Shown: positions 2 through 18,609 of the stretch, piece by piece
Position numbering within the stretch: position 1 is the first letter of the stretch
Layout: each line of letters opens with the position of its first letter
IMG/VR virus record: IMGVR_UViG_3300042870_001240
From: a virus
Lineage: Duplodnaviria > Caudoviricetes
DNA length: 64,000 nt
Direction: 5' to 3' (one strand)
The notes under the pieces: generated by a model
The model's input: only the letters and a program-made list of their open reading frames with translations
Databases searched by the model: none
What the model was told of the DNA's origin: nothing
Position numbers and translations under genes: made by a program

Positions 2-151
2 TATGTAACTAAATTTACAATATACCAACCAAACATAAACATAATATTATCTAATGACTACATCGTTGAAAAGGGAGACTTACAAGTAGATTTAGGTTTT
101 GCTTTTGATAACATAGTAATGTATTCAGACGATATCTCAGGAGACAAATGA
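2..151 (+). CDS. 3' fragment of hypothetical protein
   Basis: Open frame from the window edge (YVTKF...ISGDK*); its TGA overlaps the ATG at 148 (ATGA). Confidence 0.55.
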   Translation, partial: YVTKFTIYQPNINIILSNDYIVEKGDLQVDLGFAFDNIVMYSDDISGDK

Positions 152-474
152 AATATATAATAACAGAAAATAAGTTAAACAATGTCGCGTTAAGTTGGAT
201 GAATCAAAACTTCAGTCCATACCAGTTAGAAATTTTTGAATCTGAAAAATATCCAAATTCTGTTTTTTTTAGAAAAAATGGAAAAGTTGTGATGCAACAA
301 GATAAAAAATCTAAGTTTTTTTGGTTTGATTATGATAAAATTTGGTCATTTTTTAAATTGTTTTTTGGTATGCAATACCCACAAATACAAGACGTTCTGA
401 ACTACTGGTTGGAGGATACTTTCAAATTAGAGGGTTATACACCTAATCCCTACGAATTAACATATACACTTTAG
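148..474 (+). CDS. Array-linked small protein, paralog A (108 aa)
   Basis: 73/99 identical to 18295-18609 by manual alignment up to GYTP; LEDTFKLEGYTP is encoded by repeat 408-443. Confidence 0.85.
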   Translation: MKYIITENKLNNVALSWMNQNFSPYQLEIFESEKYPNSVFFRKNGKVVMQQDKKSKFFWFDYDKIWSFFKLFFGMQYPQIQDVLNYWLEDTFKLEGYTPNPYELTYTL

Positions 475-497
475 TTGGAGAATACCCTCAAATTAAA
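408..497 (+). CRISPR. CRISPR-like mini-array A: repeat, 30-nt spacer, truncated repeat
   Basis: GTTGGAGGATACTTTCAAATTAGAGGGTTATACACC (408-443), spacer 444-473, partial repeat GTTGGAGAATACCCTCAAATTAAA (474-497). Confidence 0.65.
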
Positions 498-4057: not shown

Positions 4058-4549
4058 ATGGGAAAATCTAAATTAGAAGCATTAAGTGATAGAATATTAT
4101 CTCAATTTTTTATCCAATTAAGAAAAATATATGACGAGGAGTTAAGAAATAGTCCTCATTACTCATTGGTTGAACAAGATAATTTTATTGATGCGTGTGA
4201 TACGGTATCAAGTATATTTGGGGTCGCTCCTTGTGATTATATCGACCTTGATTTTATTATCACCATGATTGATATGAATCCATCTATTAGTGAAGGCATT
4301 ATTAATAAAAGACCAACAATAGGTAACTATACTTATGAGATAGATGTTCACGAAAAGGTTTATGAAAGAGTGACTTATAAACATAAGAGTGAATCGTATA
4401 GTCCAAGTACATTAATACAAATAGCTAAAAAAATGGAGTATGAAGGTGATATAAGTGTTTGGGATGGTCAAGAAATCGATAGGGATAATTATGATTCAGA
4501 AACTATCAGTATTGACTACGATAAGAATTCAATTACTAAAATAGGTTAA
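4058..4549 (+). CDS. Hypothetical protein
   Basis: 163-aa ORF with upstream motif. Confidence 0.75.
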   Translation: MGKSKLEALSDRILSQFFIQLRKIYDEELRNSPHYSLVEQDNFIDACDTVSSIFGVAPCDYIDLDFIITMIDMNPSISEGIINKRPTIGNYTYEIDVHEKVYERVTYKHKSESYSPSTLIQIAKKMEYEGDISVWDGQEIDRDNYDSETISIDYDKNSITKIG

Positions 4550-16853: not shown

Positions 16854-16955
16854 GGTGTTAGACCCTTCAAATTATAGGTCTCTTCCAACTATAAAGAACG
16901 CAGGTTATTATTTGAAAAAGGTGTTAGACCCTTTAAATTATAGGTCTCTTCCAAC
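16854..16955 (-). CRISPR. CRISPR-like mini-array B: two 36-nt repeats, one 30-nt spacer
   Basis: GTTGGAAGAGACCTATAATTT(A/G)AAGGGTCTAACACC at 16920-16955 and 16854-16889; spacer 16890-16919. Confidence 0.75.
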
Positions 16956-17197
16956 CAGTATGTTATAATACCCTTCATTTGTTCATATTCCAACCCAAAA
17001 AAGGATTTTAAAAACGACCAAATTTCATTGTAATTTATATAAACATACCCATTTTTTTTATCCTGATAATAATAAAATAATGGTAATCTATCTTCATTAA
17101 CATAAATTGTTCTATCACCCTTAACTATTGGTTTTAAATTACCAAATTTATCGTTAAGCCATGTTATCACGACCTTATCTAATTTATTTTTAATCAT
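16889..17197 (-). CDS. Array-linked small protein, paralog B (102 aa)
   Basis: QDKK...IWSF...FFG..Y...YWLEETYNLKGLTP shared with A and C. Confidence 0.85.
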   Translation of the reverse strand: MIKNKLDKVVITWLNDKFGNLKPIVKGDRTIYVNEDRLPLFYYYQDKKNGYVYINYNEIWSFLKSFFGLEYEQMKGIITYWLEETYNLKGLTPFSNNNLRSL

Positions 17198-17215: not shown

Positions 17216-17641
17216 TTATATAGATTGTTTGGATTCCCTATCTAAATCTCGTAATTTAATAGAATTTCTTTTATCCCATAGTTTTTTACCTTTAGCCAAC
17301 ACAATATCAACCTTCAATAATCCCCTGTCATTCTCATATAATACATGAGGAATGATTGTATATCCCTTAACCAACTCTGATTCAAGTTTTCTTAATTGTT
17401 TTTTCTTCAATAACAATTTTTTATCGGTAGCAATATTATCATTCCCAATTCCTTGGATAAGAACCCCTTTCATATATAACTCCCCATTATTAAAATAACA
17501 GAACGAGTCAGTCATAGAGACTTTCCCTTCTCGGATTCTCTTAACCTCAACACCAGTCAATTTAATACCCGCCAAGAATGTTTCCTCAATAAAATACTCA
17601 AACTTAACTTTTTTATTCTCAATACGAACTTTTATCTTCAT
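17216..17641 (-). CDS. smpB: SsrA-binding protein SmpB
   Basis: FEYFIEETFLAGIKLTGVEVK...KKLLL...AKGKKLWDKR; probable start at 17641. Confidence 0.9.
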   Translation of the reverse strand: MKIKVRIENKKVKFEYFIEETFLAGIKLTGVEVKRIREGKVSMTDSFCYFNNGELYMKGVLIQGIGNDNIATDKKLLLKKKQLRKLESELVKGYTIIPHVLYENDRGLLKVDIVLAKGKKLWDKRNSIKLRDLDRESKQSI

Positions 17642-17791
17642 AAACACAAAGATAAATATAAAAAACAAAAAACCCTAACAAATTTTTACATTCACCAGGG
17701 TTTAATATTAACCAACTAAGAAAGGGGTCGTTGGGACTATTTAGGTTATAAATATAACAAATTTTTTAAAAAGAAAAAGATATTTATAAAT

Positions 17792-18133
17792 ATGATATTA
17801 AAAATCAACGATAACAAATTTAAAGTGATGGTAATGATGACTCAAAAAGATACTCAAAAGGGTATGATGGGTCGTGACTTTGATTCTAACTTTAATGGTA
17901 TGTTATTTCTAATGGACAAAGGTCCTCACGGTTTTTGGATGAAGGATTGTATTATCCCATTGGATATTATTTTTATTGACGGTAATACAATAACTAAAAT
18001 ACACCATAGTTGTCCTCCATGTAAATCGGAAGACTGTCCTAGTTATGTCGGAACAGGAGATACTATTTTAGAACTTAGAGGCGGTACTTGCGGGGAATTA
18101 AGTATTAAAGAGGGGGATAAGATTCTATACTAA
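17792..18133 (+). CDS. DUF192 family protein
   Basis: GMMGR...GMLF...FWMKDCIIPLDIIFID...ILELRGG. Confidence 0.85.
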   Translation: MILKINDNKFKVMVMMTQKDTQKGMMGRDFDSNFNGMLFLMDKGPHGFWMKDCIIPLDIIFIDGNTITKIHHSCPPCKSEDCPSYVGTGDTILELRGGTCGELSIKEGDKILY

Positions 18134-18349
18134 TTTGAGAGTATCCTCCAACTGGATGTAATGGAGCGAATTGCGAAGCGTGGTGTATAACCCTTTAATT
18201 TGAGAGTCTCTTCCAACTAGTCATGCTTTCCGCTGAACCGTCTTTCAGGTGTATAACCCTTTAATTTGAGAGTCTCTTCCAACTACTAACGCATTCAAGA
18301 CTGGAAATGGCTCGGTGTATAACCCTTTAATTTGAGAGTCTCTTCCAAC
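18131..18349 (-). CRISPR. CRISPR-like mini-array C: three identical 36-nt repeats, one truncated repeat, spacers of 30/30/29 nt
   Basis: GTTGGAAGAGACTCTCAAATTAAAGGGTTATACACC at 18314-18349, 18248-18283 and 18182-18217; partial repeat 18131-18152. Confidence 0.85.
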
Positions 18350-18609
18350 CAGTAACTCAGAAATTCCTGTATTTCTTGGTATTCCATACCAAAAAACGAT
18401 TCAAAAAATGACCAAATTTCATCATAATCAAACAAAAAATCTTTATTTTTTTTATCCTGCTCCATCACAACTTCTCCATTTTTTTTAAAAAAAATTGAAT
18501 TAGGATATTTTTCAGATTTAACAATTTCTAACTGGTCTAAACCAAAGTTTTTGTTCATCCAACTTAACACGACATTGTTTAACTTATTTTCCGTTATTAT
18601 ATATTTCAT
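18295..18609 (-). CDS. Array-linked small protein, paralog C (104 aa)
   Basis: LEETLKLKGYTP comes from the repeat; SHFQS* comes from spacer 1. Confidence 0.85.
   Translation of the reverse strand: MKYIITENKLNNVVLSWMNKNFGLDQLEIVKSEKYPNSIFFKKNGEVVMEQDKKNKDFLFDYDEIWSFFESFFGMEYQEIQEFLSYWLEETLKLKGYTPSHFQS

Follow-up and report, generated by a model that had tools for sequence, protein, structure and literature searches.

A stretch of 64,000 nucleotides from a tailed virus (Duplodnaviria; Caudoviricetes; IMG/VR record IMGVR_UViG_3300042870_001240), hereafter the window, carries at positions 18131 to 18349 of its minus strand a clustered regularly interspaced short palindromic repeat (CRISPR) array. 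We term this element array C, and its first repeat is the 3' end of a small protein-coding gene, gene C. Array C is a phage-borne, cas-less CRISPR array, unusual in being fused to a gene, whose uptake of host DNA is live and polarised: through CRISPR-type integration, it gains units of host chromosomal DNA at its gene-proximal end, next to repeat 1. In the reading that we prefer, to which we assign a probability of about 70%, array C is a genuine cas-less array of type VI-B format (36-nt repeats with 30-nt spacers) that is extended in trans by host machinery using host DNA. A jumbo lake phage in this way records the DNA of its likely host, the reverse of ordinary CRISPR immunity.

Array C is fused to the 3' end of a phage gene

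Array C consists of three identical 36-nt repeats, three unique spacers and a truncated fourth repeat. Gene C (18295–18609, minus strand) is an open reading frame (ORF) of 104 amino acids plus a TGA stop and belongs to a family of paralogs that begin MKYIITEN. Its last codons are supplied by repeat 1 (18314–18349), the gene-proximal copy, which is read in frame as L-E-E-T-L-K-L-K-G-Y-T-P. The frame passes through this repeat and ends at the TGA five codons into spacer C1 (18284–18313; 30 nt, 13/30 GC or 43%), which therefore also encodes the protein tail SHFQS-stop. There follow repeat 2 (18248–18283), spacer C2 (18218–18247; 30 nt, 14/30 GC or 47%), repeat 3 (18182–18217), spacer C3 (18153–18181; 29 nt, 14/29 GC or 48%) and the truncated terminal repeat (18131–18152; 22 nt), all on the minus strand. 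Gene C thus plays the part of the array leader. Compared with the full repeat, the truncated copy has changes at positions 7 and 10; it is nearer to the repeat of a paralogous locus, locus A (408–443), from which it differs once. Its last 3 nt (18131–18133) are the TAA stop of a convergent DUF192 gene (17792–18133, plus strand; Pfam PF02643, E = 5.7e-22), an overlap that is also kept in the related phage L003.

The array layout, though not the coding role of repeat 1, had been described in an earlier reading of the bare sequence (the original prediction), together with the GC contents of the three spacers against a window of roughly 30% GC and the absence of spacer matches within the window. 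Each of these observations was reproduced. Not one of 100 shuffled windows contained even a single copy of the repeat. Window GC is 31.2%, and the GC of each array C spacer falls within the top 6–12% of 30-nt windows; three such GC-rich 30-nt windows at a period of 66 occur at just 0.5% of window positions. This GC contrast belongs to array C and not to the whole family, for the single spacer of the paralogous locus A has only 27% GC and that of locus B only 23%. Family-wide, mean spacer GC is 37% against 31% for the loci, and spacer lengths range from 27 to 32 nt with a mode of 30. The array C spacers share no similarity with one another and, homologous arrays excepted, no copies of them were found elsewhere in the window or in about 100 further loci that were fetched. 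A promoter and terminator scan returned background levels only.

Strain haplotypes differ only beside the gene

Sister-strain contigs were reached via proteins 96–100% identical to that of gene C. Their flanks are 95–100% identical to the window, with the exception of L071 (86–94%). Four haplotypes were recovered: C1-C2-C3 in the window and L072; Y1-Y2-C3 in L092–L094 and L096; X-C3 in L071; and C3 alone in L068–L070. Spacer C3 and the truncated repeat are invariant in all four, and the differences lie solely beside the gene. Array C therefore shows the classical leader-end/trailer-end pattern, and C3, common to every haplotype, is its oldest unit. L068 and the window differ by exactly 132 nt, or two units, the remaining DNA being 100% and 99.1% identical. 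The pattern of conserved distal and variable proximal units recurs when L026/27 is compared with L028, and in arrays a and b of L030. Here is a natural case of CRISPR-type spacer integration from host DNA into a phage genome, with turnover among near-identical strains. The stretch occurs in 19 lake metagenomes, and the gene-proximal junction would offer an easy amplicon for tracking insertion events in lake time series.

In the mechanism that we favour, the leader and first repeat are the 3' end of a small protein-coding gene on a jumbo-phage genome. A new 66-nt unit, comprising a fresh 30-nt spacer and a copy of the repeat, would enter at the gene-proximal repeat, and older units would be pushed towards the truncated terminal repeat.

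The newer spacers match the chromosome of a Chitinophagales bacterium

Genome samples of 401 Chitinophagales, 401 Flavobacteriales and 401 Cytophagales were screened for the source of the spacers. Both C1 and C2 were matched in a single genome of the sampled Chitinophagales, the 2.6-Mb G479. Spacer C1 is identical over 30/30 positions to G479:C10:90151–90180 (E = 1.3e-8 per genome), where it lies antisense in a surface-protein gene carrying Ig_7 and Por_Secre_tail domains and sorted by the type IX secretion system (T9SS). Spacer C2 matches G479:C4:89155–89184 at 29/30 positions (E = 3e-7 per genome), in sense orientation within rpsB (Ribosomal_S2, E = 3.8e-90) of the rplM-rpsI-rpsB-tsf operon; the sole mismatch is a synonymous GCA/GCG site. 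In the sister genome G466, C2 is matched at 27/30. Three sister-strain spacers also have their counterparts in G479 (Y1, 29/30; Y2, 30/30; B5, 30/30), and the five G479 matches lie on five separate contigs. A further spacer, B3, matches parB of G466 at 26/30, with mismatches at apparent third codon positions. The protospacer genes, namely rpsB, the T9SS surface protein and an arginine deiminase, together with parB in G466, are ordinary chromosomal genes.

It is unlikely that the G479 matches reside on misbinned phage DNA, because one of them sits in the rplM-rpsI-rpsB-tsf operon. The host of the phage is likely to be the Chitinophagales lineage represented by G479; an uncultured jumbo lake phage is thereby tied to a small Chitinophagales family by five independent 29–30-nt matches in its own genome. 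GC around the protospacers is 36–41%, above the 31% of the phage, which bears out the proposal that the spacers came from a higher-GC source such as the host. The accompanying proposal, that the newest units lie beside the gene, agrees with the four haplotypes. The original prediction had named two findings that would speak against it, a lack of protospacers and strain variation at the distal end; both were looked for and neither was seen.

The same matches bear on a rival explanation, in which a coding repeat underwent ordinary tandem duplication or recombination and the intervening segments diverged under selection, with neither an integrase nor foreign DNA. Such a history would account for a 66-nt period that equals 22 codons and for the presence of the conserved repeat-encoded helix in array-less homologs. 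However, five spacers reproduce, exactly or at 29/30 positions, unrelated genes of a single bacterial genome, the spacers are mutually dissimilar, and the repeats are identical at synonymous sites and have sharp 36-nt borders. A plain coding tandem repeat is contradicted by the host protospacer matches, and we regard this explanation as highly improbable. A diversity-generating retroelement was also considered and dropped, there being no template/variable repeat pair and the spacers being unrelated to each other.

Four of the six mapped spacers are in sense orientation and two are antisense. Codon phase was mixed among the four spacers checked, with only B5 in frame with its source gene. The mixture of orientation and phase fits gene-blind capture of double-stranded DNA and, as far as such patterns can indicate, is consistent with DNA as the captured molecule. 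In the favoured mechanism the inserted pieces would be chromosome fragments of the Chitinophagales bacterium (the G479 lineage) in which the phage grows, and capture would take place during infection from degraded host DNA.

Searches for additional sources were negative. No source for C3 was found in G479 or G466 (at up to 3 mismatches) or in the sampled genomes, and the array gave nothing significant against the Flavobacteriales and Cytophagales samples. Exact-match scans for C1, C2 and C3 in IMG/VR, and for C1 and C2 in JGI metagenome contigs, returned no hit; a scan for the truncated-repeat context was also empty, and the phage lineage itself seems to be absent from IMG/VR and these contigs. 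Searching 50,697 phage records with the array by blastn gave matches at chance level only, and a search among relatives of G479 yielded no further spacer match. In a low-sensitivity search, the arrays of L003 and L030 against the G479 family, and that of L032 against the 401 Chitinophagales, showed only similarity to smpB. As a separate observation, 31 nt of the inter-array segment of L003 (approximately 4201–4231, presumed smpB) are 94% identical to two genomes of the G479 family.

The repeat is of type VI-B format

The window repeats align with the Cas13b repeat of Bergeyella zoohelcum with z-scores of 8.2 (array C), 5.4 (locus B) and 6.8 (locus A), in the same orientation only; none of 500 shuffles reached the alignment score. 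As in Bacteroidota VI-B repeats, the array C repeat starts with GTTGGAA and ends with ACA-A/C-C. Species-representative genomes were scanned for arrays whose 36-nt repeats carry these end motifs and whose spacers measure 28–32 nt; the arrays recovered included those of Bergeyella zoohelcum and Capnocytophaga, which are true Cas13b arrays. Array C, with its 36-nt Cas13b-like repeat and 30-nt spacers, has the VI-B format.

A precedent for extension in trans exists in Flavobacterium columnare, where VI-B arrays that lack cas1 and cas2 are loaded by a type II-C module, many self (chromosomal) spacers, with peaks at oriC or ter, enter the VI-B array and, in other species, II-C repeats exceed VI-B repeats by 11 bp on average (Hoikkala et al. 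2021; PMC8092290). Array C resembles such Bacteroidota VI-B arrays in having a 36-nt repeat, 30-nt spacers and no adaptation genes at the locus, in growing at the end beside the GTTGG side of the repeat and in taking up chromosomal spacers. In contrast to them, array C is borne by a phage, no cas13b was found in phage or host family, a folded protein is encoded by the sequence that serves as leader and first repeat, and the hairpin is weak. Additionally, all spacers mapped so far are host-derived and none comes from a phage.

A candidate adaptation module in the host family

In phmmer searches, Cas9, Cas1, Cas2 and Cas13b gave nothing at E ≤ 10 against all ORFs of the window and related loci. 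Nor was any Cas1, Cas2, Cas9 or Cas13b found in a relative of 309 kb whose completeness is rated at 100%, or any Cas13b in four phage records searched with a single Bergeyella query. Among the five genomes of the G479 family, one (G435) encodes a type II-C Cas9-Cas1-Cas2 module followed by an array (L088:6337–12847; Cas9 of 1487 amino acids, Cas1 and Cas2; 47-nt repeats and 29–30-nt spacers). The spacer length of 29–30 nt agrees with that of array C. No spacer of the G435 array matched the window.

The repeats of certain relatives offer a further parallel. Those of the L026/L029 type are the only phage repeats that resemble the G435 II-C repeat (z = 5.9 and 4.2). The L026-type repeat has a 16-nt word in common with it and is 11 nt shorter, and the 36-nt repeat of L026–L029 also shares both end motifs; to judge from this alignment, the L026–L029 repeat looks as if it were the II-C repeat minus 11 nt. 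By analogy with F. columnare, we consider it somewhat probable that the type II-C Cas1-Cas2 of the host serves as the integrase and acts in trans while infection proceeds. Should host Cas1-Cas2 be the agent, adaptation in trans would extend past the cell's own arrays.

There may be a laboratory counterpart to such integration. Nivala and colleagues reportedly observed, in 2018, off-target formation of 'neo-CRISPRs' by Cas1-Cas2 at pseudo-repeats in the E. coli chromosome. That system has in common with array C integration at a non-canonical sequence and duplication of the adjacent segment as a new repeat; it differs in that the array C arrangement is conserved and multi-copy in natural phage populations.

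Were array C transcribed with its gene and processed, the spacers could instead serve as working phage guide RNAs with which host Cas13b or Cas9 silences or cuts host genes such as rpsB. The spacers do match host genes, one of them a translation gene, and the repeat is VI-B-like in both sequence and orientation; transcription from the gene would proceed from the leader side as in VI-B arrays. Moreover, Al-Shayeb et al. (2020; PMC7162821) report cas-less arrays of huge phages with spacers directed at host transcription and translation genes. However, Cas13b could not pair the four sense spacers of the six mapped with mRNA, the hairpin of the repeat is weak, and neither the phage relatives nor the five host-family genomes yielded a Cas13b. 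The window repeat is unlike the II-C repeat of the family, such that the host trans-activating CRISPR RNA would not pair with it. No protospacer-adjacent motif (PAM) emerges, and the very fast turnover of spacers, described below, argues against retained guides. We therefore judge working guide RNAs to be quite improbable, and we lean towards the phage loci serving host adaptation as substrates and not supplying working guides.

Gene-array fusion is a trait of the gene family

Relatives of gene C are encoded at 36 IMG/VR loci. At many of these, downstream copies of the last 36 nt of the gene alternate with unique spacers of about 30 nt and end in a truncated copy of 22–24 nt, and the repeat sequence diverges in step with its gene across the family. 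Among 113 homologous proteins, 106 different tails follow the repeat, and the first spacer is open in 77%. A mini-array of the same repeat class, comprising two repeats and one spacer, was also observed directly at a gene end in a Cytophagales metagenome-assembled genome (L039:2634–2732); no cas gene was seen beside it in the stretch read.

The gene C protein was modelled by AlphaFold as an alpha/beta fold with a predicted local distance difference test score (pLDDT) of 90 and a predicted template modelling score (pTM) of 0.80. In this model the repeat-encoded residues 88–99 form the end of helix 3, the last helix, leading into the last strand. A C-terminal W-x-E helix is also present in array-less homologs. 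All 198 homologs are annotated as 'hypothetical protein', none having a Pfam domain or an informative name. The protein itself matched nothing in Pfam or PHROG, and the fold search found no match in the PDB (best E = 0.17) and only uncharacterised relatives in AFDB.

In four loci of the same gene family the arrays remain in frame: L030:100–3000, L031:2480–2960, L032:3560–4989 and L009:860–1200 (minus strand). Their 27 spacers of exactly 30 nt contain no stop in 297 in-frame codons, while the other sense frames hold 13/270 and 31/270 stops; the probability of the in-frame zero arising by chance is approximately 4e-10. The same spacers are codon-like, with G at 33% of first codon positions against 14% of third positions. 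In-frame arrays reach nine units, and their repeats degenerate towards the distal end. Judged by these codon statistics, the arrays of L030, L031, L032 and L009 appear to be translated and under selection. Because they are open and codon-like, a function at the level of the protein stays in play. In two other loci, frames were observed to continue into a second domain and would give two-domain fusion proteins: in L001:3001–3684 the frame crosses the spacers and repeats and enters another copy of the domain, and in L013:3001–3672 it passes through the truncated repeat into the next paralog.

One such function would be a device in which a phage-encoded or co-opted insertion activity varies the C-terminal tail of a small protein, possibly one delivered with the virion. 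The peptide would be the object of selection and the CRISPR-like geometry the footprint of the insertion mechanism. Repeat 1 is predicted to be a structural part of a confidently folded domain, and insertions recreate that domain and alter the tail only; the open arrays of the four loci and the high proportion of open first spacers are also as this device would have them. Conversely, the arrays of the window are all closed by stops (for C1 the TGA five codons in, for loci A and B a TAG at the junction), just one of the four phase-checked spacers is in frame, and two of the six mapped are antisense. No candidate integrase was found in the phage DNA examined, and the geometry is exactly that of II-C/VI-B arrays of bacteria of the host phylum. 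On balance, we consider a device of this kind unlikely.

Among the spacers of this phage lineage, five of eight end in TA, which together with the first G of the repeat gives an in-frame TAG at the junction. These are the spacers at 18284–18313, 18218–18247, 16890–16919 and 444–473 of the window and the first spacer of L092. The TA end of C1 and of C2 also occurs in the host sequence; for Y1 the final A of the phage corresponds to a G in the host. Selection for the junction TAG was entertained and dropped, as across the family only 9 of the 113 proteins stop at the junction. Stop-codon reassignment was likewise dropped: TGA is the first stop that follows repeat 1, and read with table 11 the ordinary ORFs are intact.

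By-product or selected device

The loci may be tolerated by the phage, or selected as a sink or decoy for host CRISPR machinery. Either role fits the observation that each insertion rebuilds the protein domain and swaps only a short C-terminal tail. A stronger proposal is that the gene-array fusion is a selected device, in which the 3' end of the gene mimics a CRISPR leader-repeat junction so that host Cas1-Cas2 writes into the phage. We hold this to be possible, if doubtful. If it is true, the loci, of which the window has three, would act as a multi-copy sink diverting spacer integration from the host array, or would generate new peptides at the C-terminus of a protein that is possibly delivered with the virion, or would do both. 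The occurrence of a repeat within a folded protein, and of in-frame arrays, raises the question of whether CRISPR adaptation is exploited to rewrite the tail or to blunt host adaptation.

Several observations weigh against extension of a genuine VI-B-format array by host Cas1-Cas2. The window repeat RNA folds at -4.4 to -6.8 kcal/mol with z-scores of -0.9 to 0.1, no better than its shuffles, where the Bergeyella repeat reaches -11.2 kcal/mol (z = -3.4). The window repeats are therefore doubtful as scaffolds of CRISPR RNA (crRNA); the repeat ends in CACC, so that only three of the four GUUG/CAAC closing pairs could form. The window repeats show no similarity to the 47-nt II-C repeat of G435 (z = 0.3, 1.7 and 0.0). 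Array-less homologs keep the C-terminal W-x-E helix, so the origin of the phage repeat may lie in the gene and not in a CRISPR locus. The six protospacer flanks share no PAM motif, six being too few to exclude one. No Cas1 was found in G479 or G466, assemblies that are perhaps incomplete, and the link of the host to Cas1-Cas2 rests on a sister genome. Cas13b was not found in the five genomes of the G479 family using a single Bergeyella query, and these genomes too may be incomplete. The short array occurs in the closest strain, L068, and the long one in the more distant L072, which implies that some of the variation is deletion between repeats or recombination and not gain. Finally, the retention of sister-phage arrays as ORFs is unexplained by a pure by-product model.

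Comparison with other virus-borne CRISPR elements

Compact, often cas-less arrays with some spacers matching host chromosomes are described for huge phages in the part of the report by Al-Shayeb et al. (2020; PMC7162821) considered here. With two such huge phages, LR756502 and LR745206, the window has genes in common that are 71–76% identical at the nucleotide level. Like the arrays in that portion of the report, array C belongs to a Bacteroidota jumbo phage, is short, has no Cas1/Cas2 or effector, and has host-matching spacers. Unlike them, as far as that portion describes them, array C is fused in frame to a gene, occurs among several paralogous gene-array units per genome and turns over gene-proximally at the level of strains.

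Virus-borne mini-arrays, solitary repeat units and RNA anti-CRISPRs (Racrs) are the subject of Camara-Wilpert et al. (2023; PMC10651486) and of a review (PMC11656645). Array C shares with Racrs the carriage of CRISPR repeats by a virus without cas genes and a possible decoy role towards host CRISPR proteins. Racrs are non-coding solitary repeats that mimic a functional crRNA handle, whereas the array C repeats are coding, are accompanied by spacers that turn over, and fold poorly. A search of the literature found no description of gene-fused or translated CRISPR arrays.

Paralogous loci and neighbouring features

Array C is one of three paralogous gene-array loci in the window. Locus A (148–495, plus strand) comprises a gene at 148–474, a repeat at 408–443, a spacer at 444–473 and a 22-nt truncated repeat at 474–495, the last running directly into the next MKYIITEN gene. 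Locus B (16854–17197, minus strand) comprises a gene at 16889–17197, repeats at 16920–16955 and 16854–16889, and a 30-nt spacer at 16890–16919 that is identical in L068, L071 and L072. The first eight codons of these genes, encoding MKYIITEN (148–171, 508–531 and 18586–18609 in the window, and many other loci), show nucleotide-level conservation in small genes that are otherwise unrelated and in distant phages. Between arrays B and C the phage encodes SmpB (17216–17668; Pfam E = 2.9e-40).

Upstream of repeat 1 (18350–18470, minus strand), poly(A)/poly(T) runs lie approximately 40–110 nt from the junction and encode conserved K-K-N-K and S-F-F-E-S-F-F-G. II-C and VI-B leaders share poly(A)/poly(T) motifs at similar distances (PMC8092290), and the likeness of the gene C runs to these motifs may be a coincidence.

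In L071:3700–4800, locus B has grown to three paralogs in tandem, and every one of them carries an array. A single paralog of the three has the locus B spacer of the window, followed by the truncated repeat and then the ATG of the next gene. Whole genes seem to be gained and lost through recombination between the arrays of adjacent paralogs.

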